Assembly (NCBI GenBank): GCA_963769935.1
Contig: CAVYNY010000013.1
Coordinates: forward strand, 384,001-448,000
Direction: 5' to 3'
From: an uncultured delta proteobacterium
GTDB taxonomy: Bacteria > Desulfobacterota > Desulfobacteria > Desulfobacterales > JAFDCJ01
DNA length: 64,000 nucleotides
The position numbers and the translations under genes were made by a program. The notes under the pieces were generated by a model. It ran no database searches. It was not told the DNA's origin and was given only the letters and a program-made list of their open reading frames with translations. Shown here in pieces: positions 986-32,211 of the stretch. Position 1 is the first letter of the stretch, and each line of letters opens with the position of its first letter.

Positions 986-1001
986 AGCAAAAAGCGTGCT
1001 A
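986..1001 (-). promoter_or_regulatory. Degenerate sigma54 -24/-12 promoter for paralog A
   Basis: Minus strand TAGCAC-GCTTT-TTGCT (AG in place of the invariant GG). IHF-like TTTCAA-N4-TTA at 1008-1020. Confidence 0.5.
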
Positions 1002-1053
1002 AATTTATAACCCTTTGAAATCAAAGCGATCATTGCGCAGGCCGATGAGGAAC

Positions 1054-1113
1054 CGGAACAGCCGATTCCGAAATACCGCCGGATTTTGCTCGAATCAGGA
1101 ACTGCTGATTCCG
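1054..1113. promoter_or_regulatory. Two putative activator (UAS) palindromes
   Basis: CGGAA-N7-TTCCG at 1054-1070 and AGGAA-N7-TTCCG at 1097-1113. Confidence 0.7.
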
Positions 1114-1297
1114 ATTGGATCAGGCTGAATTCGAAAAACTATATTAATTCTCGATCCTTACGAACTTTGCACTCTTTTTGCATATATAGGCCTTGAAATA
1201 TAAGTTAACTTTGCCTGAAAAATAGCTTAAAATATATATAGAGACGGCGATTAGAAGAGGGCTTCCAAGGCACCTGTCGACATGGAGATGTAAGATT

Positions 1298-2530
1298 TTG
1301 GATAAAAACGATCACCTAAGTTGTTCATTTTGCGGCAAAAATCAAAACGATGTCAAAAAATTAATTGCCGGACCGGCCGTGTATATCTGTAATGAGTGTA
1401 TTCTGCTGAGCGCAGAAATCCTGAATGAGGAACTGCAGGCGGAAGAAATTGCGACCCGGCGGATATTGACGCCGCGGGATATCAAGGCCCGGCTGGATGC
1501 CTATGTCATTGGACAGGATGCGGCCAAAAAAACGCTCTCGGTCGCCGTTTACAACCACTACAAACGTCTCGGTGTTCCCAGCATGACAGACGAGGTGGAG
1601 ATTCAGAAAAGCAATATCCTGCTCATCGGTTCGACCGGAACCGGCAAAACCCTGCTGGCCCAGACTCTGGCCCGCTTCCTCGATGTACCGTTTGCCATCG
1701 CCGACGCCACCACCCTTACCCAGGCCGGGTATGTGGGCGAAGACGCTGAAAACATTATCCTTTATCTGCTGCAGAATGCGGGCTACGACCTGGAGCGCAC
1801 CCAACGCGGGGTGGTCTACATCGACGAAATCGACAAGATTGCCAGAAAACCTGGATTTTCTTCGACAACCCGCGACGTATCGGGCGAAGGGGTCCAGCAG
1901 GCGCTGCTGAAGATTCTCGAGGGAACGCTCACCAGCGTACCGGTAAAGGGGGGGCGCAAACATCCCCAGCAGGATTTCGTCAAGGTTGACACCACCAACA
2001 TCCTTTTTATCTGCGGGGGAACCTTCACCGGGCTGGACCGAATTATTCAACGCCGTCTGGGTGCCAAAGTTATGGGGTTCGGCGCCAAAATCGCCCGGCA
2101 GCAGGAACGCGAATCCGGTGATATCTTGAGAATGGTCCAGCCTGAGGACCTGCTGGATTTCGGCCTGATTCCCGAATTTATCGGTCGCCTGCCGGTGTTA
2201 GCCGCCCTGCCGGATCTCAATCGGGAGTCCTTGGTGCGGATATTGCTGGAACCTAAAAATGCCATTGTCAAACAGCTGCAAAAACTCTTTGAAATGGAGG
2301 GGGTGCACCTCAGATTTACCGAAGAAGCGCTGAAGGCCACCGCCCAAGAGGCCATCGGTCGCAAGTCCGGCGCCAGAGGACTGCGGACCATTTTAGAGGA
2401 CTGTCTGCTGGATATCATGTATGAGCTTCCTTCCCTTGAAAATGTCAAGGAGTGTGTCATCGATGAAGATGTGGTTTTAAAAAAGGGCAAGCCCTTTTTA
2501 ATCTACGAATCGGTTAAACAACTTGCTTAG
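1298..2530 (+). CDS. clpX: ATP-dependent Clp protease ATP-binding subunit ClpX
   Basis: N-terminal CSFC...CNEC zinc domain, Walker [13 protein letters not shown] pore loop, Walker B YIDEIDK, GGRKHP, MGF loop, GARGLR. TTG start; no adjacent clpP. Confidence 0.96.
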
Positions 2531-2567
2531 GTGGAACATTTACAATCCCAATCGATAGGACCGCGTA

Positions 2568-3314
2568 ATGAAACGATTTGTCAAAGACATCGATCCATAT
2601 AGTACTATGGTTTTTGTTATATTTTGGCTGGCCTGCTGCGGGGCACTTCTTATTCCGGCATCGGCCCTCGGCGAAAATTCGGTTGCCGATGCAATCATTT
2701 CATTGGAAGTAGCCGATAAACCCTTGGGGGAAGTACTGGAAAACATCTCGGACGCCGCAGGCTGTCAATTCAATATCGATGCCAGCTGGGAAGATTATCC
2801 CATCACGGCATCTTTCAAAAATGAACCCTTGTACCGGGTTTTAAAAAGAATCTTTCGCGATCTCAACAATGCCGTCATTTACGGTTCGGATCGCAAAATA
2901 AAGATAATTATTTACGATGAAAGCGCGCCCGCCGGTAAGAAGACCGGCTATGCGATTGCCATCAAACCGGCCGAAACCGCCATGTCGCAAGCCCAGCCCG
3001 ACAGTGATGCAACTGCCCCCCAACCTGAAGTCCCGGCTGCTGAAGACAGCAGCAGTGCGGAAAATATCGAACAGCCCTCGGAAGAAAATGCCGGGTCGGT
3101 TTCGGAAGCAAATCAGGCCGGCACTGAAAACACGGAAGTCAATGAAGAATCCGGTGAGACGCAAGCCGAAGAGAAGACCCCGGCCGTTGAGACGGAACAG
3201 AATGACAACACCGCTGTTCAAAACAGCAGTCCAACCGAATCGACCGGGTCCGCTGCCGACAGCTCGGAGAGTACCGAAAAAAAAGAAAACAGTGAGGAAT
3301 CCAATCAAAATTAA
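2568..3314 (+). CDS. Exported protein with a secretin/TonB N-terminal (STN/N0)-like domain and long acidic disordered tail
   Basis: Hydrophobic signal-like segment, ISLEVADKPLGEVLENIS...ITASFKNEPL pattern, E/S/A/N-rich C-terminal half. Confidence 0.65.
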   Translation: MKRFVKDIDPYSTMVFVIFWLACCGALLIPASALGENSVADAIISLEVADKPLGEVLENISDAAGCQFNIDASWEDYPITASFKNEPLYRVLKRIFRDLNNAVIYGSDRKIKIIIYDESAPAGKKTGYAIAIKPAETAMSQAQPDSDATAPQPEVPAAEDSSSAENIEQPSEENAGSVSEANQAGTENTEVNEESGETQAEEKTPAVETEQNDNTAVQNSSPTESTGSAADSSESTEKKENSEESNQN

Positions 3315-3639
3315 ACCCGAATTGAATAAGCGGCCGGAAGACATGCGGCAGTCGCCGACATTTGTAACCGGGGCGCAAATTCAAGAAGTTCTTGCAACTT
3401 CTCAGCAGCTGAAAATACCGGCCTGCAGAAGTGAGAATTGATCCTGCCTGAATATCATGCCTGGCAACCCAAAAAATCATCATATGGCGACGATTTTTTA
3501 TTGACCCATCCAATGCTGTCGGGTTAGAGAATACCCGCCAATTGCCATATCGCCGGAAAAGTAGAATAAAATTTCGCCCGGCCGCTGTCCCGGTCCATCG
3601 CGGGAACCGGCCGCCGTGGACGAATCACCTTTCAGGCCC

Positions 3640-4851
3640 ATGAAACGACCCATCATCCGTTTTTATAATGTCTTCAAAAAATTCGATGCCAACCAGGTGC
3701 TGGCCGGCGTCAGTCTGAGAATTTTTCAAGGGGAAGTAGCCACCATTATGGGCAAAAGCGGCGTGGGCAAAAGTGTACTGCTCAAGCACATCATCGGCCT
3801 TTTGCAGCCGGATGCGGGTGAAATTCTCCTTTACGGGCAGCCCATGTCCAAGATGAAGGCGTCAAAAATCAACAAGCTGCGGGCCAAGTTCAGCTACGTT
3901 TTTCAGGATACGGCGCTTTTCGACTCCCTGACCGTCTACAACAACATTGCCCTGCCCCTGCTGGAAGGGACATCAATGGCAAAATCGGAAATCAGGGAAC
4001 GGGTGCAGCAAAAAATGCAGCAGTTCGAGCTGGAGGCGTTTCGTGACAAATTTCCCGCCCAGCTATCCGGCGGTATGAAACGGCGGGTCGCCCTGGCAAG
4101 AGCGCTGGTAACAGATCCTGAGGTGGTTTTGCTGGATGAGCCGACCGCCGGCCTTGACCCTGTACGCCGCAACGCGGTATATGCCATGATTGTGGACTTC
4201 CAGAAAAAATTCGGCTTTACCGCGGTCATGATCAGCCATGAAGTCCCGGATGTCTTTTTTTTCTCCCAACGAATCGTCATGCTGGATGAGGGTAAAATCC
4301 GGTTTGAGGGCTCCCCCGAGGAGCTTCAGCGCTGCTCCGACTCGGCGGTTCAGCTGTTCATCCAGGGCTTGGAAAAGCCGCGCGACGCCCTGACCGGCAT
4401 GGCTACGCCGGTGCAGGGGGAACGCAAATTCCATGAAGCGTTGGCGCACCTGCAGCGTCACCAGATTGTCTTCTCCGTGGTGATGCTCACCGTTGAAAAC
4501 CTGGCTGAAATTAACGAAAAAATCGGGCATGTGGGAGGCCAGACCATGCTCAAAAACTTTGCCGCTCAGATAAAGCAGCGTCTCGACCTCACCGATTCCT
4601 GCTCCCGCTACAGCATGGACAAGATACTCGTCGTGCTGCACAACGCCGGCATCGACGACGCCCGCCGGTTTGCAACCCGGCTGGCCCGGGAACTGAAAAC
4701 TGAGGATCTGATACACAGAAACGAGAATCCTGATCTGTCGGTTCGGATCAGCGCCGGCTACGCCCAGGCCGAAGAAGACAGCCTGATCAAAGCGGTGCTG
4801 GCAAATGCGGAATCAAAAGACAGCCTGTACTACGAATTTGAGTTGAAATAA
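3640..4851 (+). CDS. MlaF/Ttg2A-like ABC ATPase fused to a degenerate GGDEF domain
   Basis: GKSGVGKS, LSGGMKRRV, LLDEPT, SH motif. C-terminal INEKIGHVGGQTML...RYSMDKILVVL...ISAG. Alternative GTG start at 3616. Confidence 0.85.
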   Translation: MKRPIIRFYNVFKKFDANQVLAGVSLRIFQGEVATIMGKSGVGKSVLLKHIIGLLQPDAGEILLYGQPMSKMKASKINKLRAKFSYVFQDTALFDSLTVYNNIALPLLEGTSMAKSEIRERVQQKMQQFELEAFRDKFPAQLSGGMKRRVALARALVTDPEVVLLDEPTAGLDPVRRNAVYAMIVDFQKKFGFTAVMISHEVPDVFFFSQRIVMLDEGKIRFEGSPEELQRCSDSAVQLFIQGLEKPRDALTGMATPVQGERKFHEALAHLQRHQIVFSVVMLTVENLAEINEKIGHVGGQTMLKNFAAQIKQRLDLTDSCSRYSMDKILVVLHNAGIDDARRFATRLARELKTEDLIHRNENPDLSVRISAGYAQAEEDSLIKAVLANAESKDSLYYEFELK

Positions 4852-4866: not shown

Positions 4867-7116
4867 TTAGAGTGACTTGCAGTAAATGACTTTGTTGTCG
4901 CCCGGAGCGTAGAATTCCGTTAGCACCGCATCCAGCCGGTAGCCGGCATTTTCATAAAAGGCGCGCGTGCTGGCATACTGCAGGCGCTGGGAGGTGTCCA
5001 CATAGATGCGGCTGCCGCCGGCATCCCGGATCAGGTGCTCGGTCTCCTGCAGCAGCCTTTGCCCCAGCCCTTTGCCCTGTATATCCGGATGCACCGCAAT
5101 CCAGTATAGATCGTAGCTGCCGACGGTACACGAAATCTGCCCGTAGCAGGCATAGCCCACCAGGCGGCCGTACTGTTCAGCCATCACGAAATTGTAACCG
5201 CTGGCCGCACCCCGTGCAAGGCGCTCCTGGGCTAGTTCCTCGGCCACATCGACCTCCTCCTGCGAAAAAAAGCCGGTAACCTCAACCAGATGACGAATGC
5301 GTCCGGGGTCTTCCGGCTGCAGTTCATGCCGCAGTTGAATGCCTTGCAGCCTTTCAGGCGAAACTTTGTGGCTTTCGGCCCAACGCTGGGCCGCAAAGGA
5401 CAGCCCTTTAAAGAAATGCAGGGCATTGGTTCCCAGACTGCGGGTCCGATAGCCCCCTTCCTGGACCACCAGCGTCGGCAGGCCCAAACCACCGATCAGG
5501 CGACCGTTGGCCTCGAAATCTTTGGCATTCAGGGACCAGGTACCGGTGGGATCCCCTTTGGCCGGATCCAACCCCAGCGCCACGACCAGGAAATCGGGTT
5601 TAAAATCCGCGATGCGGCGCAGGGCCTTTTCCAGTGCCTTGAGGTGGGCGGCCCCGTCGACGGCCTCCGGCAGCGGCAGGTTCAGGTTGAAGCCCTCCCC
5701 TTCTCCCTCCCCGCACTCCTCCTTGAAACCGCTGAAATAGGGATAGGCAAAGGTGGGATGGCCGTGAATCGAAACGGTCAGGACATCGCTGCGGCGGTAA
5801 AAAATATCCTGCTGCCCGTTGCCGTGGTGATAGTCGATATCCAAAATGGCTACCCGGCCGTACGCGGTCAGGTATTCGGCCGCGATGGCATTGTTGTTGA
5901 AATAACAAAAGCCGCCGAAGTTGCGCCGCTCGGCGTGGTGTCCCGGCGGGCGCACCAGCGCGTAGGTAATCCTGCGGCCTGCCAGCAGCTCGCGGGCGGC
6001 GGTCAGCGCGCAATCGACACCCCGGCGCGCCGCCGGAAAGGCATTGCGATGTATAGGGGTGAAGGTGTCGATACAGTAGTAGCCGGCGAGCACCGAGGGT
6101 TCGTGCGGCGGCCGCGTCTTGTTGCGGATGGGAAAAATGTACGGGTAAAGGGATTTTTTCTCGTCGACTTCCCGGCAGGCCCGCCGCAGATAGTTGACAA
6201 AATCGGCGTCATGGACGGCATAAAGGTGCTTGTCCGGAAATTTGCGCGGTTTGACTTCAACGAACAGCCCGTGGGGCATCAGGGCCGCAGTAATGCTGCG
6301 AATGCGAACCGGGGATTCCACGTAACCGCGATCATGCACATGATGGATGTCATGGCGGTCATTAATGACGACCACGATCTGCTCATCGGATTGCGACGTC
6401 ACGGTCGCGCGCACGGCTTCGGGCTTGACATAGCGAAAAGGACGCAGCTGAACCGGGTCGTCGCGAAAGGAACGGATAACTTTGGTCACGTATTCAGGCG
6501 GACAGTAGTCCGCGTATTTGCGCTCCAGCAAGGCGCGTACGGCTTTCCTGGCAAAACTGCAGCGCGGCGCTTTGATCCGGTCCAAACCGTCGTAAACCAG
6601 ATGCGGCATGCAGCGGTCACCAGGTTTGACCGGCAGTTCGTAGTTCGTGTTGATGATCGGTCGCGCGCCGTAGCGTTCGTAAAAGCGCAAACGCGCCCGG
6701 TTCTCCTTTAAAAGGGCTTCGTCCGGGCAGGCTTCGAATTCGTCGGGCAGGCATTCAAAAAACAGACCTTTGGCGTCCAGGGCCACCGCTTCGCGGCGCA
6801 CGCGGTCGTAGAGGGCCCCGCCGAAACCCCCGCCGGTTTTGCCCTTGACGGAGGCAATCCAGTCTAAAAAACAGAAGCCGATCTGCGGTTCGTGCAGCAG
6901 CATGGCAAACCCCAGCACGCGCCGGCGCAGGTTCTCGGCCACAAAAAGGATGCTGCGCAAGCGCTGTTTGAATGGATTGCGCAGCTTTTCACCGATCAGA
7001 TCAATTTCTTCGGCCGGCACTGCACTGAAGCGGCTCTGCAAAATGGCTTTAACCTGCCGCAAAATTTCGCGGTTGACCGGCACGATATCATCATAGATAC
7101 GACGTATTCGGAGCAT
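4867..7116 (-). CDS. GNAT / histone-deacetylase-family (acetylpolyamine amidohydrolase-like) / GNAT fusion
   Basis: Deacetylase motifs RPPGHHA, GFCYFNN, DIDYHHGNG, GLDPAKGDP, QEGGY. N-terminal GNAT-like region (GGGFGGALY...RFYERYG) and C-terminal GNAT (VHPDIQGKGLG...AFYENAGY). Confidence 0.9.
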   Translation of the reverse strand: MLRIRRIYDDIVPVNREILRQVKAILQSRFSAVPAEEIDLIGEKLRNPFKQRLRSILFVAENLRRRVLGFAMLLHEPQIGFCFLDWIASVKGKTGGGFGGALYDRVRREAVALDAKGLFFECLPDEFEACPDEALLKENRARLRFYERYGARPIINTNYELPVKPGDRCMPHLVYDGLDRIKAPRCSFARKAVRALLERKYADYCPPEYVTKVIRSFRDDPVQLRPFRYVKPEAVRATVTSQSDEQIVVVINDRHDIHHVHDRGYVESPVRIRSITAALMPHGLFVEVKPRKFPDKHLYAVHDADFVNYLRRACREVDEKKSLYPYIFPIRNKTRPPHEPSVLAGYYCIDTFTPIHRNAFPAARRGVDCALTAARELLAGRRITYALVRPPGHHAERRNFGGFCYFNNNAIAAEYLTAYGRVAILDIDYHHGNGQQDIFYRRSDVLTVSIHGHPTFAYPYFSGFKEECGEGEGEGFNLNLPLPEAVDGAAHLKALEKALRRIADFKPDFLVVALGLDPAKGDPTGTWSLNAKDFEANGRLIGGLGLPTLVVQEGGYRTRSLGTNALHFFKGLSFAAQRWAESHKVSPERLQGIQLRHELQPEDPGRIRHLVEVTGFFSQEEVDVAEELAQERLARGAASGYNFVMAEQYGRLVGYACYGQISCTVGSYDLYWIAVHPDIQGKGLGQRLLQETEHLIRDAGGSRIYVDTSQRLQYASTRAFYENAGYRLDAVLTEFYAPGDNKVIYCKSL

Positions 7117-7139
7117 CTTTACAAACTCTTTATCTCTGT

Positions 7140-7282
7140 CTCAACCCGGACAAGACGGTTGGACTGAAAGGGAAATCCCGATTCATCGGGGAACCATAAA
7201 GTGCACATTAATCACGAAAGCACGAAAGGACGAAAACACGAAATGTAGAGAAGATAAATTTCGTGTTTTCAAGATTTCGTGA
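7140..7282. repeat. CCGGCTTGTCCGGGTT(A/G)AG-type repeat plus inverted CACGAAA arrays
   Basis: 7140-7158 is the reverse complement of 54742-54760 with one mismatch. CACGAAA units at about 7213-7243 face TTTCGTG units at about 7259-7282. Confidence 0.7.
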
Positions 7283-7325
7283 TAATAATATTTTTCCATA
7301 AAATGCAAAGAAATCACAATTAAGA

Positions 7326-8378
7326 CTAATGCAGATCGGCCGACCGGATGCGGCGGTATTGCGGCTGCTCGATCCCGTCGGCAACAATCCGTTTTACCGC
7401 CAGGGTAAAATCGATCCCGGCCCGCGCCAGGGCGGCGGCAAAACCGGCGTCAGGGCTTAGACACGGATTGGCGTTGATTTCCAAAATCCAGGGCCGTCCC
7501 TGCCCATCGACCCGATAATCGACCCGGGCATAGCCTCGCAGTCCGAACAATTGCCAAGCTTGCAAGGCCAAGGCCTGCAGCTCGTCGAGCAGGGGGTTGT
7601 CTTCGGTACCGAAATCGAACCTGCGGGGCGTGCGCTGATAATCGTCGGAGTTCACGTCCCATTTGGCACGATAACCGACAATCCGCGGCTGGCCGGCGCC
7701 AAACCCTTCGAAGCTGATCTCGGCCGGCGGCAACACCTGCGGGCCCTTGGGACCGGCCAGGACGGACAAATTAAATTCCCGGCCTTCGACAAAGACCTCG
7801 GCAAAACAAACTCCGCCCAGCGAGGGGGCGCGCCTTTGCATCGTCTGCTCCAGGCTCTGATCGCAGGTGTCTTCGACGATATTGTCCGCCTCCAGACCCA
7901 CCGAGGCATGCTCCCATAAGGATTTGATGATCCAGTGCTGCCCGGAAGAAGCCTGCCGGCCGACAGGCCGTAAAGATGGCGCCGACGGCAAATCCTGTGG
8001 GCAGGGTCCGGTCCAGGCCGGGGTCGGCAACTGCGCGGCAACCATGCGCTCTTTGGCCATTACCTTGTGGGATGTCAACCAGATGGCTTCGGCAGGGGCG
8101 CCGGTGTACCGCAGCCCCATGGCATCCAGCAGTGATGGAACCAGATGAATCAGACATCCGTGTCCGGCCAGAGACTCCACCAGGTTGAACACGAGATCCG
8201 GCCGCTGGGCTTGCAACTGATCGCGCAGCTGTCCCAACTCCAACCCGGCGGGCAGCGAAAAAGTCTCGTGACCCAAAGCCCGCAAGGCCTTTCGGACGGC
8301 ATCCACCTGGACCAGCACGTCCTGCTCATCCGCCGGACCGTCGTCCGTCACGGCGTTGTAAACCACCGACACACGCAT
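7326..8378 (-). CDS. D-Ala-D-Ala ligase-like ATP-grasp protein 2
   Basis: VFNLVES, YTG, HASVG, EVFVEGREF, GYARVDYR, EINANP. Lacks the GGxSxE motif of true Ddl. Start set at MRVSVV, which has a GGGAG RBS. Confidence 0.88.
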   Translation of the reverse strand: MRVSVVYNAVTDDGPADEQDVLVQVDAVRKALRALGHETFSLPAGLELGQLRDQLQAQRPDLVFNLVESLAGHGCLIHLVPSLLDAMGLRYTGAPAEAIWLTSHKVMAKERMVAAQLPTPAWTGPCPQDLPSAPSLRPVGRQASSGQHWIIKSLWEHASVGLEADNIVEDTCDQSLEQTMQRRAPSLGGVCFAEVFVEGREFNLSVLAGPKGPQVLPPAEISFEGFGAGQPRIVGYRAKWDVNSDDYQRTPRRFDFGTEDNPLLDELQALALQAWQLFGLRGYARVDYRVDGQGRPWILEINANPCLSPDAGFAAALARAGIDFTLAVKRIVADGIEQPQYRRIRSADLH

Positions 8379-8477
8379 TGTTAGCTCCCACGCTTCTGCG
8401 GTCCGCACCATCATTCGCAGGACGAAAGATCAGATTAAGCCGACCTGGATACGCCGGGTCTGAACTAAAATTCGGAC

Positions 8478-9536
8478 CTATCTGCTTTCTCCCCCTGCAG
8501 CAGCCTGGCGCTGCGAGTCGATGATCTTTCCGGAAACTGCCTGCGACCGCGGCGAAGTCATCCGCCGGCGGGCGGAGGCCATGATTTTTTCGATCAGCAC
8601 CTGATAGGACATGCCGATCCGACTGCAGATGATCGGCAGATCCGAATGCTCCGGATGCAAACCGGCCAGGGGGTTGACTTCCACGAACTGGGGGTTGCCG
8701 CGAGCATCGCAGCGGATATCGATCCGGCCGGCGTCGCGGCAGCCCAGCACGCGCCAGGCCTGCAAAGCAATCGCCTCGGCTTCCCGCACCGTGGCATCCG
8801 CCGCGGCATCAACCAGCCGGTATTCCACCAGTTCTTCACAATTTTCTTTGTTCTCATACGAATAGACCTGGGGTTCGGCGGCCGACCGCAGATGGAGTTC
8901 AATCGAGCCTAAAACTGCGGAATCCATTCCCGTTCCGACCAGACCGACGGTGAACTCGCGCCCCGGCAGGAATTCTTCTACCAGGACCGGCTGCCGATAG
9001 GCGCCAATCAGCTCGGCGCAGCGGGGCAGCAACTCCTCGCGTTGCCGGATGACGGAGGCCGGCGTGACCCCTTTGCCCGTCCCCTCAGCTACCGGCTTTA
9101 CGAAAAATGGCGGATCGAAAGTCACTGGCTCTGCCTGACGGCCGTCTTCAACCACCAGAAAATCCGGGGTCGGCACGCCGGCGTCACGGATCACCCGTTT
9201 GGTAAGGCCCTTGTGCAGCGACAAACTCATGACCAGCGGATCGGAAAAGGTATACGGGATATCATAGGCTTCCAGTAGGGCGGGTACTTGGGCCTCGCGG
9301 CCGAATCCTCTCAAACCCTCGGCGATATTGAATACCATATCCCAGCGGTCCCCTGCAACCAGCCGCTGTGCGAGGCGCATGACATTGCCGATGCGCTCCG
9401 TCCGGTAGCCGAGATCCTGCAAGGTCTGCTCGATGGCTTCAATCGTATCCGGGCGGTCGAATTCGGCCGTCTCCGCCTCGTCGTAGCCCATCGCGCGATA
9501 ATCATCGCGCAAATCATAGGTAAGTCCAATCTTCAC
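8478..9536 (-). CDS. D-Ala-D-Ala ligase-like ATP-grasp protein 1
   Basis: VFNIAEG, FVKPVAEGTGKG, EEFLPGREFTV, RDAGRIDIR, EVNPLAG. GTG start at 9536 after AGGAG. Confidence 0.9.
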   Translation of the reverse strand: MKIGLTYDLRDDYRAMGYDEAETAEFDRPDTIEAIEQTLQDLGYRTERIGNVMRLAQRLVAGDRWDMVFNIAEGLRGFGREAQVPALLEAYDIPYTFSDPLVMSLSLHKGLTKRVIRDAGVPTPDFLVVEDGRQAEPVTFDPPFFVKPVAEGTGKGVTPASVIRQREELLPRCAELIGAYRQPVLVEEFLPGREFTVGLVGTGMDSAVLGSIELHLRSAAEPQVYSYENKENCEELVEYRLVDAAADATVREAEAIALQAWRVLGCRDAGRIDIRCDARGNPQFVEVNPLAGLHPEHSDLPIICSRIGMSYQVLIEKIMASARRRMTSPRSQAVSGKIIDSQRQAAAGGESR

Positions 9537-9565
9537 GACATTTCTCCTACTGCAAACCACGTCAT

Positions 9566-10900
9566 TTATTTCAATGGGCTTTCCGCGACCGGTGCCTCAC
9601 ATCCGCCGGCGATGGGATAACGGTAGATGTCACCGGCATAGTTTTTGAGCAGCAAATCGTTGCCCTCGCGGCCCACCACATATTCCGGCAGGAGCGGAAT
9701 TTTGCCGCCGCCGCCCGGGGCGTCGATGACATAGGTCGGCACCGCGTAGCCGGTGGTGTAGCCGCGCAACCCGTGGATGACCTCCAGACCTTTTTCCACC
9801 GCCGTTCGAAAATGCCCCGAACCCAGAATGGGATCGCACTGGTAAAGATAATAGGGCCTGACCCTGATTCGCAGCAGCCCGTGCACCAGACTTTTCATGG
9901 TATCGACCTGGTCATTGACCCCGGCCAGCAGAACGGTCTGACTGCCGAGCGGAATGCCCGCATCCGCCAGGCGGGTGCAGGCCTCCTGAACTTCGGAGGT
10001 CAACTCGGCCGGATGGGTGCAATGTATGCTCATCATGAGCGGGTGATAACGCTTGAGCATCCGGGTCAGCGCATGGGTAATGCGCTGTGGCAGAACCATG
10101 GGCGCTTTGGTGCCGATCCGTATGATTTCGACATGCGGAATCTGGCGCAATCGCATCAGGAGGTATTCCAGTTTTTCATCGGGCAGGGTCAAAGGATCCC
10201 CGCCGGACAGGAGCACGTCCCTGACCGCGCTGTTCGCTTCGATATAAGCGAAGGCCTCCTCCCACTGCTGCATGTGAAAGGCCGCTTTTTGTCTTTGGCC
10301 TACCATGCGGGACCGGGTGCAGTACCGGCAATACGTGGAGCAGAACTCCGTCACGAGAAACAGGACCCTGTCCGGGTAGCGGTGGATCAACCCCGGAGCG
10401 GGGCTGTCGCTGTCTTCTCCGAGCGGATCATGCGATTCGCCCGCGGAATGCACATACTCGCTCGTCACCGGCACCACCGTGCGGCGCAGAGCCTGTTGGG
10501 GATCGTTCACATCGAGCAGGCTTGCATAGTAAGGGGTGATCGCGAAAGGCAGCGAATGACCATCATGGATCAGGGCCCGGCGTTCATCGTCTGAAAGACG
10601 GATAATCCGCTCCAGCCCGCTCGCGGTTGTAATTCGATTTCTCAGCTGCCAACGCCAGTTATGCCATTGGCTGGCGGTGGCTTCGGGAAAAAATTGTTTA
10701 CGAAAATTTTGCGTCCGTGGATTTTCCGGCAACAGCAGGTTTACCGGTTCCCGGGGTAAGGATTTCATCCCGGGTTTTTTTATATTTGGCAGGATATTGT
10801 GTTCGCAATGCTGGCTTGATTCGGCGTCCATGCGGGGGAACGCCGCCAGCCCGGTACCGGGAGGCTCCGCCTCTTCCGTAGAAAAAATAACTTTTCGCAT
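9566..10900 (-). CDS. kamA: KamA-family radical SAM aminomutase (lysine 2,3-aminomutase-like)
   Basis: HRYPDR, CSTYCRYC, LSGGDPL, QTVLL, PYYLYQCD and VIDAPGGGGKIP (PLP lysine). Confidence 0.93.
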   Translation of the reverse strand: MRKVIFSTEEAEPPGTGLAAFPRMDAESSQHCEHNILPNIKKPGMKSLPREPVNLLLPENPRTQNFRKQFFPEATASQWHNWRWQLRNRITTASGLERIIRLSDDERRALIHDGHSLPFAITPYYASLLDVNDPQQALRRTVVPVTSEYVHSAGESHDPLGEDSDSPAPGLIHRYPDRVLFLVTEFCSTYCRYCTRSRMVGQRQKAAFHMQQWEEAFAYIEANSAVRDVLLSGGDPLTLPDEKLEYLLMRLRQIPHVEIIRIGTKAPMVLPQRITHALTRMLKRYHPLMMSIHCTHPAELTSEVQEACTRLADAGIPLGSQTVLLAGVNDQVDTMKSLVHGLLRIRVRPYYLYQCDPILGSGHFRTAVEKGLEVIHGLRGYTTGYAVPTYVIDAPGGGGKIPLLPEYVVGREGNDLLLKNYAGDIYRYPIAGGCEAPVAESPLK

Positions 10901-10976: not shown

Positions 10977-10992
10977 AGCAATATATGTGCCA
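10977..10992 (-). promoter_or_regulatory. Sigma54 -24/-12 promoter of the kamA operon
   Basis: Minus strand TGGCAC-ATATA-TTGCT, full consensus, 77 bp upstream of the start codon. Confidence 0.85.
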
Positions 10993-11045: not shown

Positions 11046-11192
11046 CGGAACCGCAAGTTCCGAAGTTTCACGACTTTGTTCGACTACCGCCTGTTTAGCC
11101 GCTTAAAAAGCGGCTATGGGGACATTGGCCGGCAACCCGCAGGACGAACTGCAAGTTCTTATCCGGCTCAAAAACAGGAATTGTCATATCTG
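11046..11192. promoter_or_regulatory. Putative UAS palindromes for the kamA promoter
   Basis: Perfect CGGAA-N7-TTCCG at 11046-11062; weaker sites at 11144-11160 and 11176-11192. Confidence 0.7.
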
Positions 11193-17504: not shown

Positions 17505-18065
17505 TTACCTTCGCTTCAAAACCGACCGGCGCGCGTTAAAAAGGAAATAGGGCAACCGCCCGGCCTTGCCCACATCCCGCGCCATCTCCGTGATGTAGAA
17601 GGCATCGGGATCTTCTATTTTGACAATGTTCAATATCTGTTTCAATCCCCGACGGCGACAGGCGATATACAGCTCATCCACCGGCCCCCGCATACCCTCC
17701 CCCCTGAAAACGGTCACGGCCTGCCCCTTGGCCCTGATTCGATCCGCCAGCGGCCTGCCGGCCGTGCGGGTAAAGACTCTCAAAACGATAAAACCCAGGG
17801 CCAATTTGCGCTCAAGGCTGATTCCGACGACATTGCCGGTCGCATAACCGAAGGCATAGAAAAGGGCCAGGACCGGATGGGCGCCAATCTTATTGATAAC
17901 GGTACTCACCACCGTTATCCAGATGAGCAGTTCACAAATTCCAAGGAAAAATGCGATGACACTCCGGCCCTGAACCGTTACGATCACGCGGACCGTTCCA
18001 ATCGACACGTCGGCAATGCGGGCTGTAAAAATAAGCAAACCTGTTAGGAGGGTGTAAAAATCCAT
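17505..18065 (-). CDS. UPF0316 (DUF5698/DUF2179) membrane protein
   Basis: RIADVSIGTVR, YAFGYATGNVVG, GEGMRG, DPDAF. Start reassigned to MDFYTLL, downstream of the sigma54 site. Confidence 0.88.
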   Translation of the reverse strand: MDFYTLLTGLLIFTARIADVSIGTVRVIVTVQGRSVIAFFLGICELLIWITVVSTVINKIGAHPVLALFYAFGYATGNVVGISLERKLALGFIVLRVFTRTAGRPLADRIRAKGQAVTVFRGEGMRGPVDELYIACRRRGLKQILNIVKIEDPDAFYITEMARDVGKAGRLPYFLFNARRSVLKRR

Positions 18066-18079: not shown

Positions 18080-18095
18080 AGCAACAGATATGCCA
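18080..18095 (-). promoter_or_regulatory. Sigma54 -24/-12 promoter
   Basis: Minus strand TGGCAT-ATCTG-TTGCT. Confidence 0.75.
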
Positions 18096-18234: not shown

Positions 18235-18283
18235 TAGAACTCCCAGTTCTGATGGCCGTGAAAAACAAGAACTTTTCTTTCTG
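18235..18283. promoter_or_regulatory. Pair of UAS-like palindromes between divergent sigma54 promoters
   Basis: TAGAA-N7-TTCTG at 18235-18251 and AAGAA-N7-TTCTG at 18267-18283, 32 bp apart. Confidence 0.5.
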
Positions 18284-18459: not shown

Positions 18460-18475
18460 TGGCACACGCTTTGCT
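18460..18475 (+). promoter_or_regulatory. Sigma54 -24/-12 promoter for paralog B
   Basis: TGGCAC-ACGCT-TTGCT, full consensus. Confidence 0.8.
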
Positions 18476-18558: not shown

Positions 18559-18837
18559 ATGAAAAAACCGCAAAACCCGGAAGTCACCGGCATCATCATG
18601 CCGAATAATTGGGATAAGAACGGCAATGTCATTCAAATTGCAATTTACACAAATGAAGAAGAGATCTATCTCGTGGAACACAACCACCTGGGGCAGGAGC
18701 TTTTGAATCATATCAACCGCAGGGTCGCGGTCAGAGGCAAAAAAAGGGAACGCCTGGACGGCAACAGCTATATTGCTGTTCAAAAATATATTGTCCTGGA
18801 AGAGATAGTCGAAGACGAAACTTTAATGAAATCATAG
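18559..18837 (+). CDS. Small hypothetical beta-strand (OB-fold-like) protein, paralog B
   Basis: GIIMPNNWDKNGNVIQIAIYTNEEEIYLVE closely matches paralog C (GIVIPSDWDSNGNVISLSIATRDEEEYIIE). Confidence 0.82.
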   Translation: MKKPQNPEVTGIIMPNNWDKNGNVIQIAIYTNEEEIYLVEHNHLGQELLNHINRRVAVRGKKRERLDGNSYIAVQKYIVLEEIVEDETLMKS

Positions 18838-20238
18838 TCCGTCTTTAAACGATTCTTTTTGAATACCATACTTTACCATCAACTTGTTCAATTGACGGGC
18901 GCTGATGCCGGCATCCTGCGCGGCACTGTTTACCCGGCCCTTGTTGCGGGAAAAAAGCTCCCTGAGGTAGTGGCGCTCAAAATTTTCGACGGCTCGGCGC
19001 CGGGCCTCGGCCAATGAAAGATTGACATTTACCGGCAACACGGCGGCCGGACCGCCGGATTCGAAAAGCTCGGCGGGAAAGCCGTCCGAGGTCAGCAGCG
19101 GCGCGGTCTCAAGAATATAGGCGCGTTCCATCAGGTTTTCCAACTCACGGATGTTGCCCGGCCAATGGTAGTTTTTCAGCGCCTGAAGAACCCGCGAATG
19201 GACGGAATGAATGTTTTTGCCGTATTTCAGGTTTAATTTTTTTAAAAATACTTCCAGCAGATAGGGGATATCCTCAATGCGGTCCCTGAGCGGCGGCACT
19301 TCAACGGCAAATACGTTCAGGCGGAAGTAAAGGTCTTTTCTGAACTCTCCCTTGTTGCTCATTCCGAATAAATCGGCGTTGGTGGCGGCGATGACTCGGG
19401 CGTCGGTCTGCATAACATCTTCACCGCCGACGCGGCTGAAGGTTCCGTCCTGCAGAACCTGCAGCATCTTGACCTGTGCCGGCGGCGAAATGGTGCCGAT
19501 CTCGTCCAGAAAAATGGTGCCGCCCCGGGCCATTTCGAATTTACCCGGTTTTCGGCGGATCGCTCCCGTAAAGGCGCCTTTTTCATGACCGAACAGTTCA
19601 CTTTCCAGCAAGGTGTCCGGAATCGCTCCGCAGTGCACGCTGATGAACGGGGCATCACTGCGGTGGCTGTGCCGGTGGATCATTCTGGCCAACAGCCCCT
19701 TGCCGGTTCCGGTTTCACCCATCAGCAGCACCGTAGCCCTGGTTGGTGCAACCGCCCGAATCTTTTTGAATACTTCCCGCATACCGGCGGTGTTCGTGTG
19801 GATGACTGCCAGCCACTCGGATTTCCAGAACTGGTCCCGCAGATAGTCCAGCTCCAGATTGGTGGTATGGGATTCATTCAGGGATTCGATCACCAGCCGC
19901 ACTTCGGACGGATCAATGGGGTAGGTCAGGTAGTTGTGAGCGCCGGCTTTCACGGCCTTGACGGCCTGTCGGATCGATTCTTTTGAGGCCAGCACCACGA
20001 ACTCTGTTAAAAAATTCGATTCCTTAAACGGCTTTACGGCATCCGTATAATCGTTGGCCGGCGAAGCTTCGCCCAAAACCGTCAAATCGGAAAAGATAAC
20101 ATCGAATAAACGCTGACGGTGAAGACCGAGCGCACCCTGAATACTGTCCGAATGCTCCGTATGATAGTCCGGCGGCAGCGATGACCGGATCAGGCGGGCA
20201 ATCTCTTGGTCCGGTGCTATAATGAGCACAGATTTCAT
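18832..20238 (-). CDS. Sigma54-dependent activator (NtrC-like bEBP) 1 with atypical receiver domain
   Basis: GETGTGKG, ESELFGHEKGAFTGA, FLDEI, WPGNIREL, Fis-type HTH. Confidence 0.95.
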   Translation of the reverse strand: MKSVLIIAPDQEIARLIRSSLPPDYHTEHSDSIQGALGLHRQRLFDVIFSDLTVLGEASPANDYTDAVKPFKESNFLTEFVVLASKESIRQAVKAVKAGAHNYLTYPIDPSEVRLVIESLNESHTTNLELDYLRDQFWKSEWLAVIHTNTAGMREVFKKIRAVAPTRATVLLMGETGTGKGLLARMIHRHSHRSDAPFISVHCGAIPDTLLESELFGHEKGAFTGAIRRKPGKFEMARGGTIFLDEIGTISPPAQVKMLQVLQDGTFSRVGGEDVMQTDARVIAATNADLFGMSNKGEFRKDLYFRLNVFAVEVPPLRDRIEDIPYLLEVFLKKLNLKYGKNIHSVHSRVLQALKNYHWPGNIRELENLMERAYILETAPLLTSDGFPAELFESGGPAAVLPVNVNLSLAEARRRAVENFERHYLRELFSRNKGRVNSAAQDAGISARQLNKLMVKYGIQKESFKDGL

Positions 20239-21030: not shown

Positions 21031-21186
21031 GGGTTCACGAAAAAATTAATTCACAGTTTTAGGCGCTGAGGCGCTCTTCCGGCAAAGCGCGAAAACGCAG
21101 GAATATCTGGATATTCCGAGCTTTCACAACGCAGCCGGAAGAGATGGACCGGCGTATAAAATGTGAAGTTGTTTTTGAGTGAGCCC
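21031..21186. mobile_element. 156-bp MITE-like element, copy 2
   Basis: Same termini and core as 754-909, flanked by TTA (21028-21030, 21187-21189). The right TTA is the stop codon of the adjacent minus-strand gene. Confidence 0.85.
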
Positions 21187-21543
21187 TTAGGCGACCTTCT
21201 GCAGTCTTTTCTCGATTCTGACGGTACCGGTATCCTTGCTGAACCAGCCGAAGAACAGAATCATATCCGGATGGTCGTCCAAAGAATTGTAATTTTTAAT
21301 CACCACGCCCTGGCGGGCCGCATCAGTGGGGTCGAAGACTCTGACTTCAAATGCATGCTTTTCCTCGGCTTTCGGACGCAGGGCACATTTCAGACTCCAC
21401 ACCCAATCCGGGTCTTCCTTCAGACGAGTCACCATATGCATTCCCACGCGGTCCGGCAGGTCCTTGGGTTTCGCTAATTTAACCTCACTGCTGCCGGAGG
21501 AATTTTCACCTTGTTTTTCCTTTTGCCAAAATTTCCAGCTCAT
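21187..21543 (-). CDS. Hypothetical protein (118 aa)
   Basis: Clean ORF with globular composition and an upstream sigma54 promoter. Confidence 0.8.
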   Translation of the reverse strand: MSWKFWQKEKQGENSSGSSEVKLAKPKDLPDRVGMHMVTRLKEDPDWVWSLKCALRPKAEEKHAFEVRVFDPTDAARQGVVIKNYNSLDDHPDMILFFGWFSKDTGTVRIEKRLQKVA

Positions 21544-21600: not shown

Positions 21601-21683
21601 AGCAAGTCTCATGCCAAATAGTAATTGAATGATTTTATTATAATTAGTATTATCGTAATCGAAAATCAGAACCGGAAATTCCG
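21601..21683 (-). promoter_or_regulatory. Sigma54 promoter, IHF-like site and UAS
   Basis: Minus strand TGGCAT-GAGAC-TTGCT (21601-21616), AATCAT-N4-TTA (21622-21634), CAGAA-N7-TTCCG (21667-21683). Confidence 0.78.
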
Positions 21684-25508: not shown

Positions 25509-25735
25509 TTATGGTAGTTCCTATGATGGATTTCTTCCAACGTCATATATTTTAGATCTGCTACCATCGCAACCAGATGGGCAATCAGGATTTCCCAAAT
25601 TTTACGGCCTTTGGCGGCGCCGGCCTTGGTGGGATCACCCCTTACCCCGGTTTTTGATATTTTGCGGGTAGGCGCATACCACCGAACGCCGCGCTTGGAG
25701 GTAAAATCCAGGTAGCGGCTGACACCGGAAACCTC
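25509..25735 (-). pseudogene. C-terminal remnant of a creatininase-family amidohydrolase
   Basis: Manual translation SRYLDFTSKRGVRWYAPTRKISKTGVRGDPTKAGAAKGRKIWEILIAHL matches the creatininase G-V-x-G-D-P-x2-A...KG pattern. No start codon; absent from the ORF track. Confidence 0.7.
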
Positions 25736-25751
25736 TAAAAAATTAAAGCAC

Positions 25752-26825: not shown

Positions 26826-27125
26826 ACTTTCCCCCCGTCAGCACCGCCACATAACGATCACCCGACAGGGGTTCACGCATGTGTCGGGTCATCAATGCAA
26901 TCAAGCCGGCCGTGGAAGCCGACAGCACCTGCAACCCTGCTTTCTGTCGAATCAAACTTGCATAATTGCGCACCGCGCAGCCCGTCGTAAATCTCATTGC
27001 AAATAAAAAGGTAAAATTAAGGTTGCCAAAAGTACTTGCGAGTGTCGAGCTATCCGCTTAATTTTGGGTTATATATCCGATAATTGTCAAGACCGATCAA
27101 TAGTATATGGCTTTTCCGATATGCG

Positions 27126-29432: not shown

Positions 29433-29676
29433 GGCTTCTTTCCTGATACCAGGCATATATCATTAGGCTTGCCAACACTGCGTTCGGTCGATTCGACCCT
29501 ATACGGTAGTTTTAAAATCAACCGTAATTCGGCGATTGCAAAATTATTTATGGGTATAAATACCATTTTTGGGGAAAAAATAAAGAGCATTTCAATTGTG
29601 ATTTTCACCATCTCCTGATATAAATACTAAAGTGTTAACTGTAACTTCCTTTCATTTTATGAAAATTTTGTTTCCA

Positions 29677-29870: not shown

Positions 29871-31271
29871 ATGAAATCAATTCTGGTGGTAAGCCGAGCG
29901 GAACACGCCTATGAACGCATTCTGTCGGTATTCAAATCAAACGACACAGTGAAAAAGGCTGCGGAAAGGACATCGGCGCTGGAGCTTCTCCATAAGAAGC
30001 GATTTGATATGATTTTCATTGATTTGAATGTGCTGAATAACATCGATGCCGGTGAGAATTACCAGGAAGCCCTGATGCCTTTCTGGCAGTTGCATCCATC
30101 CGTGGAAATCATTGTCATGACACCTCAGGAAAAGATACGCAGCGCCGTCAAAGCTGTCAAAGCCGGCGCCAGTGATTATCTCACCTACCCGCTGGACGCC
30201 GAAGAATTGAAGTTGGTATCGGAAAATATAAACAAAACCAGAATGTTGCAGTCTGAGCTGGACTACCTGCGGGGTCAATTCGGACGAACGGACTTATGTG
30301 AGCTTTTAATGACCCACAGCGAACCGATGAAGAAGGTTTATCAACAAATCCGGTCTGTATCCCCGACCAAGAGTACCGTGCTGCTGATCGGTGAAACCGG
30401 AACCGGCAAGAGCGTCCTGTCAAAGCTGATTCATCGGCAGAGCAACCGCAAAGATGCGCCGTTTATCAGCTTCCATTGCGGCGCTATACCGGACACATTG
30501 ATCGAAAGTGAATTGTTTGGACACGAAAAGGGGTCTTTCACCGGAGCGGTGCGCCGAAAATTAGGCAAATTCGAATTTGCAACGGGCGGTACGATTTTTC
30601 TGGATGAGATCGGCACGATCACTCCGGCAGCTCAAATCAAACTGTTGCAGGTTCTGCAGGACGGAACGTATCAACGGGTCGGCGGCGAAGAGACCCTGAA
30701 AACCGATGTCAGGATTATTACGGCCACGAATGCCGACCTTAAAAAAATGTGCGACGAGGGAACGTTCAGAAAGGATCTGTATTACCGACTGAATGTTTTT
30801 CCGATTGAGATTCCGCCCCTGCGGGAAAGATTGGATGATATCCCGCTGTTTATCGACACTTTTTTAAAAAAACTGAACCAATTTTCACAAAAAAAGATTC
30901 ACGGCGTGCACCCGCTGGTAATAGAGTTTTTTCAGAAGTACGCCTGGCCGGGTAACATCCGGGAACTGGAAAATCTGGTCGAAAGAGCCTGTATCCTGGA
31001 AGTCTCCTCTGTATTGACGCCGGAAAGTTTTCCCGGCGAACTCTTCGATCCCGAAACGACCTCTGTATTTATTCCTTCCAGTGAGCATATGAATCTGGCG
31101 GAGGCCAGGCAGCGGGGCATAGAGGAAATCGAAAGGAAATATATCAAGGATGTTCTAACCCGCAACAAAGGCCGGATTAATGAATCCGCCGGCGATGCCG
31201 GCATAAGTTCCCGTCAGCTGAATAAATTGATGAACCGCTACGGCATACGTAAAGAAGAGTTTAAAGTTTAA
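29871..31271 (+). CDS. Sigma54-dependent activator (NtrC-like bEBP) 2 with atypical receiver domain
   Basis: GETGTGKS, ESELFGHEKGSFTGA, FLDEI, WPGNIREL, HTH. Clear paralog of 18832-20238. Confidence 0.95.
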   Translation: MKSILVVSRAEHAYERILSVFKSNDTVKKAAERTSALELLHKKRFDMIFIDLNVLNNIDAGENYQEALMPFWQLHPSVEIIVMTPQEKIRSAVKAVKAGASDYLTYPLDAEELKLVSENINKTRMLQSELDYLRGQFGRTDLCELLMTHSEPMKKVYQQIRSVSPTKSTVLLIGETGTGKSVLSKLIHRQSNRKDAPFISFHCGAIPDTLIESELFGHEKGSFTGAVRRKLGKFEFATGGTIFLDEIGTITPAAQIKLLQVLQDGTYQRVGGEETLKTDVRIITATNADLKKMCDEGTFRKDLYYRLNVFPIEIPPLRERLDDIPLFIDTFLKKLNQFSQKKIHGVHPLVIEFFQKYAWPGNIRELENLVERACILEVSSVLTPESFPGELFDPETTSVFIPSSEHMNLAEARQRGIEEIERKYIKDVLTRNKGRINESAGDAGISSRQLNKLMNRYGIRKEEFKV

Positions 31272-31274
31272 ATC

Positions 31275-31490
31275 CGGAATCCAAAATTCCGGGTATCAAA
31301 AATATCGGAATCTGCAATTCCTAACCCATCGTCTCACAAACCCCCACAGTCGGCTTTATTTTCACGTCCCATCAGCCGTCCCTGTTCGCCCCCCTGCAGC
31401 GAGTCGGAACCAATGGTTCCGAAATTAATTTCATCCAAATAAAATAATAATACAATTTCAATACGTTAGGAATTTGGCATCAGGATTGCA
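31275..31490 (+). promoter_or_regulatory. Sigma54 promoter module: three UAS, IHF-like site, -24/-12
   Basis: UAS at 31275-31291, 31306-31322 and 31405-31421; TTTCAA-N4-TTA at 31456-31468; TGGCAT-CAGGA-TTGCA at 31475-31490. Confidence 0.85.
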
Positions 31491-31518
31491 CTGCATAGCT
31501 GTTCAAAAAGCCAGGATA

Positions 31519-31758
31519 ATGAAAGCAACATCTATGGACAGCATAAGAGGCATCGTCATACCTTCAGATTGGGACAGCAACGGCAATGTAATCTCGCTTT
31601 CGATTGCAACCCGTGATGAGGAAGAATACATCATTGAAAACCATCATGATCTCTCAGATCTAAAAAAGCTTTTGAGACGGGAAGTGGTGGTGAACGGTTC
31701 CATCAAATGCCGCAATAATTCTAAAGTTATCGACGTGAAGTCCATTCGGGTTGAATAA
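31519..31758 (+). CDS. Small hypothetical beta-strand (OB-fold-like) protein, paralog C
   Basis: Paralog of A and B; start placed downstream of the promoter. Confidence 0.8.
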   Translation: MKATSMDSIRGIVIPSDWDSNGNVISLSIATRDEEEYIIENHHDLSDLKKLLRREVVVNGSIKCRNNSKVIDVKSIRVE

Positions 31759-31994
31759 GGCGTTCCGTCGTATCCGGCAGCTTCGCAAATGTCCCTGACC
31801 CTGCAACCCCTCAAATCGGTATCTGTCAGCTATTCCTCAGGTTAGTCGGCCCAGCCGACGGAGAAAATCCCTTGATATTGGCCTGGTTTGGCGCAGCGGT
31901 TTTTACATTGCAGCGATAAACTTCGCTTATTTTTGGGCCAATCATTGCGAGGGGAGTCCCTTTGAAAAATTATTGCGCCGGATATCGAAATGAG

Positions 31995-32211
31995 GAGAAC
32001 TGTTGATTCCGAACCAATTAAAAACAGGAACCTGTAATTCCGGTTTAAATTTTAAAATAATTCCAGTAGGTTATCATGCCATATAAAGACCTGAGCGTTT
32101 CAAAGCAAGATGTGCTATGTCGATCCCGGAATCAGCCGTTCCTATTCGATCCAAATTAGAACCATATTTCTTTAAATTTCAATATGTTAAATGTTTGGCA
32201 CACCTATTGCT
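31995..32211 (+). promoter_or_regulatory. Sigma54 promoter module: three UAS, IHF-like site, -24/-12
   Basis: UAS at 31995-32011, 32026-32042 and 32127-32143; TTTCAA-N4-TTA at 32177-32189; TGGCAC-ACCTA-TTGCT at 32196-32211. Confidence 0.85.

Follow-up and report, generated by a model that had tools for sequence, protein, structure and literature searches.

Organization of the locus

The window analyzed here is a 64-kb stretch of DNA from a sediment bacterium (contig CAVYNY010000013.1, positions 384,001-448,000 of the forward strand, assembly GCA_963769935.1), whose genome amounts to 8.0 Mb in 41 contigs. The first 33 kb of the window contain the genes of two paralogous activators of sigma-54-dependent transcription (bacterial enhancer-binding proteins, bEBPs), together with a module of -24/-12 promoter elements, copies of a 17-bp palindrome, MRGAAY-N5-RTTCYK, and sites resembling the consensus of integration host factor (IHF). 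It is very probable that this palindrome is the binding site of the two activators. Both are likely members of the DVU0619 family, and they would activate these promoters together. The genes concerned are listed below (HMM, hidden Markov model; HTH, helix-turn-helix).

361..654, minus strand: small acidic protein A, 97 aa, belonging to the small family of beta-barrel-like target proteins (HMM of the relatives' family, E 3e-12)
1298..2530, plus strand: ClpX paralogue, candidate target (NCBIfam equivalog)
4867..10900, minus strand: predicted target operon with a kamA-family radical SAM enzyme, two Ddl-like ATP-grasp ligases and a deacetylase/GNAT fusion
17505..18065, minus strand: UPF0316 (DUF5698+DUF2179) membrane protein
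18559..18837, plus strand: small protein B, 92 aa, same small family (HMM E 4e-25)
18832..20238, minus strand: activator 1 (P0001), pseudo-receiver, AAA+ domain with GAFTGA, Fis-type HTH
21187..21543, minus strand: 118-aa hypothetical protein, conserved predicted target, homologues of which adjoin the activator in relatives
29871..31271, plus strand: activator 2 (P0002), pseudo-receiver, AAA+ domain with GSFTGA, Fis-type HTH
31519..31758, plus strand: small protein C, 79 aa, in the position directly behind the activator where the family's first target usually lies
32316-32531, plus strand: conserved 71-aa protein, first gene of the dksA cluster (32316..33484)
32525-32893, plus strand: DksA paralogue
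32958-33173, plus strand: 71-aa CxxC protein
33215-33484, plus strand: HU

The promoter elements and sites are given next, where the gap is the number of bases between a palindrome and the T of TGGCA in the -24 box, and the scores are those of the activator-site profile.

986..1001, minus strand: sigma-54-like element 1001 with a non-GG -24 box (TAGCAC-N5-TTGCT), predicted start ~975
1008..1020, minus strand: IHF consensus, 6 bp from the -24 box, 0 mismatches
1054..1070: predicted activator site, perfect palindrome, score 19.8; distances 52 bp to element 1001, 96 bp to element 1167
1097..1113: predicted activator site, newly found, score 21.6; distances 53 bp to element 1167, 95 bp to element 1001
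1167..1182, plus strand: eighth sigma-54-like element, 1167 (TTGCAC-N5-TTGCA), divergent, upstream of the clpX paralogue, predicted start ~1193
10977..10992, minus strand: sigma-54 element of the kamA operon, predicted start ~10966
11046..11062: proximal predicted activator site, gap 53, perfect palindrome, score 23.3
11144..11192: distal pair 11144 (weak) and 11176, gaps 151 and 183, scores 10.3 and 16.0
18080..18095, minus strand: sigma-54 element 18095, upstream of the UPF0316 gene, predicted start ~18069
18235..18283: site pair 18235/18267, newly found, 32 bp apart, scores 14.9 and 14.3
18460..18475, plus strand: sigma-54 element 18460 of small protein B, predicted start ~18486
21601..21616, minus strand: sigma-54 element of the 118-aa gene, predicted start ~21590
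21622..21634, minus strand: IHF-like site, 5 bp from the -24 box, one mismatch
21667..21683: proximal predicted activator site, gap 50, without a distal pair, score 21.4
31275..31322: distal pair 31275/31306, gaps 183 and 152, scores 16.9 and 22.7
31405..31421: proximal predicted activator site, gap 53, perfect palindrome, score 20.4
31456..31468, plus strand: IHF consensus, 6 bp from the -24 box, perfect
31475..31490, plus strand: sigma-54 element of small protein C, predicted start ~31501
31995..32042: distal pair 31995/32026, gaps 184 and 153, scores 17.0 and 21.5
32127..32143: proximal predicted activator site, gap 52, score 14.4
32177..32189, plus strand: IHF consensus, 6 bp from the -24 box, perfect
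32196..32211, plus strand: sigma-54 element of the dksA cluster, predicted start ~32222

All of the seven -24/-12 elements, 11 palindromes and three IHF-like sites of an initial annotation of this DNA are present where it had placed them. The proximal palindromes had been given a spacing of 51-54 bp, a count that takes in one base more than the recounted gaps of 52, 53, 50, 53, and 52, and the distal pairs do lie 98-101 bp further out with their sites spaced by 31-32 bp (gaps of 151/183, 152/183, and 153/184). The distal site at 11144 is present but weak, with four mismatches. The IHF consensus noted 6 bp from the -24 box in three promoters is a perfect match in each. The palindrome had been written as CGGAA-N7-TTCCG; it is real, but is better described by the consensus used here. 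The original list was incomplete, given that 1097, 1167, 18235, and 18267 had been overlooked; the absence of a comparable module from the right half of the window holds, with 0 profile sites in the last 31 kb.

Six of the eight elements have a canonical -24 GG and -12 GC with the correct spacing, and elements 1001 and 1167 are without the first G. The IHF match is perfect at three elements, has one mismatch at one and is absent at four; among the 30 training promoters, the IHF consensus block lies at -20 to -7. For element 18080-18095, a proximal site and an IHF site were looked for and neither is present; the pair 18235/18267 lies between the divergent elements 18095 (gaps 139/171) and 18460 (gaps 176/208), the two for which the initial annotation had given no palindrome, and could serve both, and similar layouts are found at three loci of relatives (L144, L145, and L202). 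The region 986-1182 forms a symmetric pair of elements that would serve small protein A and the clpX paralogue, and its layout, with sites at 52 and 95 bp, is kept in three relatives. Element 1167 is weak and has no good IHF match; the same TTGCA start is found upstream in genomes G001 and G011.

Element 986-1001 had been called degenerate. Its AG in place of GG is indeed a departure from the canonical box, but this does not make it a product of decay, because five of the six homologous loci in other genomes of the genus also have a non-GG box (TAGCAC twice, TTGCAC twice and GTGCAC once), the sixth showing no element. These genus-conserved elements keep their sites and IHF box, which argues against decay, and genome G011 adds two further non-GG elements. 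A TTGCAC start of the -24 box also occurs in three predicted promoters of D. vulgaris in the available part of PMC4641369. A wider class of non-GG promoters was considered and rejected: a loose pattern is matched in 20 of 250 further genomes of this order and its reversed control in 9, and where the matches lie outside the genus, nearly all are without the AT-rich spacer. Matches to a loose pattern of the module in genome G018, which is without the activator, are repeat-derived; there, an identical 79-bp stretch fitting the pattern recurs mostly at contig ends (18 ends) and is probably the end of an insertion sequence. A search of the openly searchable text for non-canonical -24 boxes surfaced only irrelevant papers.

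Association of the palindrome with sigma-54 promoters

The 8.0-Mb genome contains 26 perfect and 522 one-mismatch palindromes and 262 sites of the form TGGCA-N7-TGCW. Such a palindrome lies 50-53 bp upstream of four of these sites, all in the window, where ~0.07 would be expected. The activator-site profile was built from 72 sites at 17 loci of other genomes only, and was seeded with the consensus of the initial annotation. At scores of at least 14, it finds 83 sites in the whole genome; the first 33 kb of the window account for 13, against an expectation of 0.29 for 33 kb. Whether the motif exceeds the background near sigma-54 elements had been set beforehand as the condition to be examined: a site is found at a gap of 50-55 upstream of 6 of the 262 genome promoters, versus a mean of 0.04 promoters with 2,000 column-shuffled profiles, none of which reaches 6.

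Because the profile had been seeded in this way, a motif-blind analysis was also run on 42 promoters of small-family genes in relatives. Of 1,408 dyads, the one with the strongest enrichment is GAA-N7-TTC, present in 39 of these 42 promoters versus 23 of 255 other promoters (p 5e-29), with position peaks at 51-54, ~151-157, and 182-188. The 19 loci retrieved with P0002 contain 56 near-perfect sites, of which 48 lie at gaps of 50-54, 145-157, or 176-188. It is clear that the association of the palindrome with these promoters is confirmed and far above chance. Four candidate promoters elsewhere in the genome (C9:66319, C14:32915, C13:589824, and C13:29904) carry only partial modules and were not accepted.

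A reading of the palindromes as terminator hairpins, or as what is left of a repeated element, is extremely improbable. The site at 31275 does begin 4 bp past a stop codon, 31404-31422 was flagged as terminator-like, and one of ten arm-position pairs covaries (distal 1/15, p 0.0004). The other nine arm pairs vary independently or nearly so, and it is these independently varying arms that largely refute a hairpin or a repeat. In addition, sites are found in divergent regions with nothing to terminate (1054 and 11046), and spacer and flanks are unrelated between copies, and the distance to the -24 box is fixed.

Co-occurrence of the module and the activator family

The phylum sample comprised 300 genomes drawn across Desulfobacterota. 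A cut-off of E 1e-125 defined members of the activator family, which is present in 38 genomes, and one of the two scans for the module was limited to five scored candidates per genome. A strict pattern of site, IHF box and promoter was found in 12 of these 38 and in none of the 262 without the family, and the reversed pattern, used as control, was found in none throughout. The corresponding Fisher p of 3e-12 is overstated since kin genomes are not independent. In three genomes the activator is on a separate contig beside a gap gene, and the module remains with the small-protein genes, as expected for a trans-acting factor. In four genomes of one genus (loci L121, L122, L123, and L135), a GAF-only gene and gap (GAPDH) come after the activator gene, and there is no module nearby.

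The two activators

P0001 and P0002 are 54% identical and have in common the recognition-helix motif G-I-S-x-R-Q-L-N-K-L-M. In an alignment of 56 rows, which includes some duplicates and one mis-picked neighbour, Arg448 of the recognition helix is found in 56 rows and Gln449 in 52. Matches of the activators to HTH_8 are weak, and the GSFTGA variant of P0002 is listed as permissive. A quick maximum-likelihood tree of 78 AAA+ domains places the activator family on one side of a branch with an SH-aLRT of 99, and P0001 and P0002 are the only two of 55 bEBP rows of their own genome in this clade, where they fall in separate subclades. Their closest relatives are from Desulfobacterales metagenome bins. 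The genome has about 60 bEBPs in all, one rpoN gene matching above the cut-off and 12 genes of the HU/IHF family. The shared helix, the single clade and the phylum-wide co-occurrence support the proposal of the initial annotation that one activator specificity governs these promoters. No activator site was found by the scan near either activator gene, so no autoregulation is seen in the window.

Given that phosphorylation-pocket residues of the receiver are in part lost and that a kinase is rarely adjacent, we infer that the receiver works without phosphorylation. Asp51 is kept in 52 of the 56 rows and the acidic pair is absent. The conserved Lys of NtrC1 aligns with Tyr106 of the activator receiver, and this Tyr is present in 55 of the 56 rows, the sole exception being the mis-picked neighbour. 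Using two kinase queries, a histidine kinase was found within 1 kb of the activator at none of 38 loci and within 3 kb at one, while a gene of the small family lies within 1 kb at 22 of the 38. With an incomplete receiver pocket and no adjacent kinase, these proteins do not resemble a phosphorylated two-component regulator of the NtrC type. The small cytoplasmic protein is the obvious candidate for a partner of the activator.

It is possible, although doubtful, that the two paralogues split the regulon or differ in signal, and that the pair-only and non-GG promoters are maybe weak, repressed or silent. Their moderate identity and separate subclades would fit such a division, as would the different promoter architectures (one proximal plus two distal sites, one only, pair only, and 52+95). 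The recognition helices are nearly identical, however, most genomes with the activator family have one copy and the same sites, and the conservation of the non-GG elements in the genus together with their sites and IHF box speaks against decay. A division of this kind alters the wiring only, and leaves the assignment of the motif intact.

Beside activator 2, the region 23602-29456 encodes a GAF-containing PtsP-like enzyme I, a DgcN-like protein, a dipeptide epimerase and a YitT gene. In relatives, dgcN lies behind the module; in the window, no activator site was found near dgcN, nor near ptsP.

Target genes

A census of 119 module promoters at 117 partly redundant loci shows the small family as first gene at 52, the 71-aa gene that precedes dksA at 6, the 118-aa gene at 6 and groES at 5. 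Ligase/acetylase genes, dksA, kamA, groEL, HU, the CxxC protein, dgcN, Hsp20 and a glycosyltransferase recur within 3 kb downstream of the module (groES, groEL and Hsp20 being named by eye). The initial annotation had listed as co-regulated the kamA operon, the small paralogues, the UPF0316 and 118-aa genes and the dksA cluster. For the first and last of these groups, the small paralogues and the genes around dksA, the case is strong; it is moderate for kamA and the 118-aa gene, and weaker for UPF0316, which has the site pair only. The window promoters would be co-regulated, and the regulon would extend beyond the window, with at least two promoters elsewhere: C20:53274 and C22:436433 carry the module before the fourth and fifth small-family genes, so that all five such genes of the genome lie behind at least part of the module.

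For the dksA clade (at least 69% identity), the module lies upstream at 10 of 12 loci, compared with 0 of 17 other dksA loci; the two exceptions have only 853 and 103 bp of upstream sequence, and the clade is found only in genomes with the activator. Genes of the kamA operon occur within 3 kb of the activator at 9 of 38 loci. Of five UPF0316 orthologues, two have the module, one in the same layout and one more inside an operon. The UPF0316 mRNA would be nearly leaderless if its predicted start (~18069) is right. Directly downstream of this gene, 15517-17433 encodes a protein resembling Glu/Leu/Phe/Val dehydrogenases with C-terminal CBS domains, possibly in the regulon.

The proteins themselves offer few clues from databases. 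Small protein A has no Pfam family above the cut-off and a faint OB-fold match (E 0.12), small protein C falls in unnamed clusters only in the ESM Atlas, the small-protein alignment, searched by sequence against the PDB, has no match below E 0.96, and the 118-aa protein has neither a Pfam match nor a usable one in the ESM Atlas. One of the two small-family proteins encoded outside the window has a signal-peptide-like start. In some relatives the reading frame of the small-family domain also takes in a signal-peptide-like stretch and a tail that is rich in Lys/Ala and resembles peptidoglycan-binding sequences (L111:8333-8929, L112:10742-11443, and L124:8244-8951) or an OmpA-like domain (L075/L147); these composites are fusions or overlapping genes.

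RNA contigs of close relatives, from four metatranscriptome runs of one study, start at 32245 and 31535/31541. Some enhancer regions are uncovered, with 1010-1171 lacking coverage in every run, but 32118-32721 is spanned by another contig. The contigs reveal neither strand nor starts, DNA is possibly present, and they were not used as evidence.

Other features of the region

A MITE-like (miniature inverted-repeat transposable element) repeat of ~165 bp lies at 746-915 and 21030-21190, and the genome has 78 near-full copies. Small protein A has one copy in its leader, a recent insertion, because the relatives' RNA contigs are without it, joining 747 to 913/914. The diadenylate cyclase/YbbR gene (21715-23156) is in two frames, split near 22050-22077 by a frameshift or an assembly error, and is one 344-aa open reading frame (ORF) in relative L145. 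The RecD2 helicase at 37889-40084 is likewise in two pieces (model positions 1-269 and 419-712). By eye, 20462-20790 (plus strand) appears to hold the C-terminal remnant of a universal stress protein, without an intact ORF. At 3616-4851, an ABC-transporter ATPase fused to a GGDEF-like domain follows a 248-aa gene without a family. The region 41752-48629, where the module was not found, encodes Lon protease, two Hsp20 genes and a second RpoD-like sigma factor.

The published DVU0619 prediction and the identity of the regulator

As far as the available part of PMC4641369 (Kazakov 2015) shows, nine DVU0619 sites have been predicted, in groups of three, in front of DVU0617 and two orthologues. They were assigned by co-localization without experiment, DVU0619 is listed as a two-component regulator with function unknown, and its regulon consists of one operon of two genes in three genomes. 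All nine sites score 13.3-19.1 with the present profile, which was trained without them, and rank in the top 2e-5 of genome positions.

Several observations weigh against assigning the palindrome to the window activators and against the proposed role of the regulon. Of the 38 genomes with the activator, 26 are without the strict pattern, and 11 of 40 loci of 20 kb are without the module at the first threshold, with a few appearing at relaxed settings. The distal spacing varies among lineages, being ~152/183 here and ~178/207 in Desulfovibrio, so that helical phasing is not fixed. In the window, elements 1001 and 1167 have no GG dinucleotide, and the 18095/18460 promoters carry only a pair with three mismatches. 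The module is directly upstream of kamA in only four of nine relatives; of these four, one has it at an odd gap of 73, and one is a 60%-complete genome where no activator was detected. A role in stress is read from gene names only. Lastly, supplementary file 2 of PMC4641369, in the part available, prints the matching helix (T-R-Q-I-H-K-L-M) under DVU0621 (NrfR), the sites of which are a different motif.

This last point bears on whether another regulator that travels with the locus, such as another bEBP or a LexA-like repressor, binds the sites while the window activators bind elsewhere. The genome has enough bEBPs to supply one, the published table taken literally assigns the helix to NrfR, and the published DVU0619 assignment itself was by co-localization. 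Nonetheless, this is very unlikely. The pattern is absent from all 262 genomes without the activator family, and no other regulator family recurs among 117 clustered loci. The LexA box of Firmicutes is GAAC-N4-GTTC; here, the distance to the -24/-12 element is fixed and the spacer is 5, not 4.

As for the table, four internal checks favour a shift of labels, and we consider that its two-component block of DNA-binding domains is probably displaced by one row. The helix of this genome's flagellar activator (FlbD-like, beside flgB-fliH) stands under DVU1156; the FlbD homologue, the sigma-54 activator DVU1063 (PMC3333781, in its available part), is one row higher. A ZraR-type helix is printed one row below DVU3381. 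DVU0539 and DVU0946 share a motif, and NrfR and LurR share sites, and in both cases the helices are near-identical only after the shift. Because the labels appear to be shifted in this way, DVU0619 likely belongs to the family of the window activators. The same shift could also affect the tree in Fig. 2 of PMC4641369.

Proposed mechanism and significance

If the palindrome is the binding site of the activators, three activator dimers, centred near -87, -186, and -217, would assemble one hexamer, as with the three sites of NorR. IHF bound at approximately -45 to -33 would bend the DNA, allowing the hexamer to reach the sigma-54 holoenzyme. The receiver would not be phosphorylated, and a partner protein or a small ligand may control it instead. 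The output may be a stress or growth-arrest programme, comprising the DksA paralogue, HU, ClpX, the small beta-barrel-like proteins and the kamA/ligase/acetylase pathway, and the GroES/GroEL and Hsp20 of relatives would fit such an output.

A bolder proposal can be made, which is unlikely as it stands: that the family is a phosphorylation-independent master switch of the sigma-54 general stress response across Desulfobacterota, restrained by its first target, the small protein, in a feedback like that of PspA or FliX, and driving non-GG promoters through the doubled 52+95 site. FlbD-type bEBPs work with a FliX-like partner, a role for which the small protein is only a candidate here.

With the assignment of the palindrome to the activators, the orphan DVU0619 prediction of one operon becomes a testable regulon of several operons, and D. 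vulgaris, which is genetically tractable, likely carries one member of the family. The kamA/ligase/acetylase pathway, the DksA paralogue and an unnamed family of small proteins would be tied to one switch, which would give a handle on the timing of their expression. The analysis also points to labels that are probably displaced by one row in the supplement of a published paper, and to a sigma-54 element of non-GG type that is conserved in a genus.

Comparison with known systems

In the openly searchable literature, DVU0619 and DVU0617/DVU0616 are mentioned in one paper only, and no account of the regulon was found in openly searchable papers (subscription papers, RegPrecise and figures being outside this search). 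A 2025 survey, in its available part, links sigma-54 to groEL/groES mainly in other phyla, and dksA goes unmentioned there.

The closest likeness is to the DVU0619 regulon as given in the available part of PMC4641369. The 17-bp dyad is the same, there are three sites per promoter with the pair 29-31 bp apart, the proximal gap computes to ~52 (site at -127, promoter at -60) as here, and the activator adjoins an operon of small hypothetical genes in D. vulgaris Hildenborough. The sites of that promoter lie at -127/-253/-282, with pair gaps of ~178/207, so the pair is ~26 bp closer here. The present system differs in having eight elements in the window and at least two elsewhere, two activator copies, a strong IHF box and a receiver that is apparently not phosphorylatable.

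Other bEBPs share parts of the design, as judged from the available parts of the respective papers. NorR at norVW of E. coli also uses three enhancer sites for one bEBP, all three being needed for oligomer assembly and ATPase activity (PMC2831303), but NorR senses nitric oxide through a GAF domain and recognizes another motif, and several promoters here have one or two sites. OrpR and IHF at the orp operons of D. vulgaris have a similar geometry, with a functional IHF site at -43 between the sigma-54 box and the activator site at -88 of the experimentally tested orp2 promoter (PMC3897727), compared with the predicted -45 to -33 and -87 here; OrpR is a redox-sensor activator with another motif. 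The FlbD-type bEBP DVU1063 also has a receiver without phosphorylation-pocket residues and may not need phosphorylation (PMC3333781), and differs in its flagellar regulon, motif and clade.

The module is real and conserved, and the mechanism is ordinary: the design is that of a textbook sigma-54/bEBP system, and the motif had already been predicted in print for a single operon. The pseudo-receiver adds to the value of the system. What is new is the wider predicted regulon, with the small beta-barrel-like proteins, the dksA paralogue, HU, the kamA operon and, in relatives, chaperones, together with the duplicated activator and the genus-conserved non-GG -24 element.

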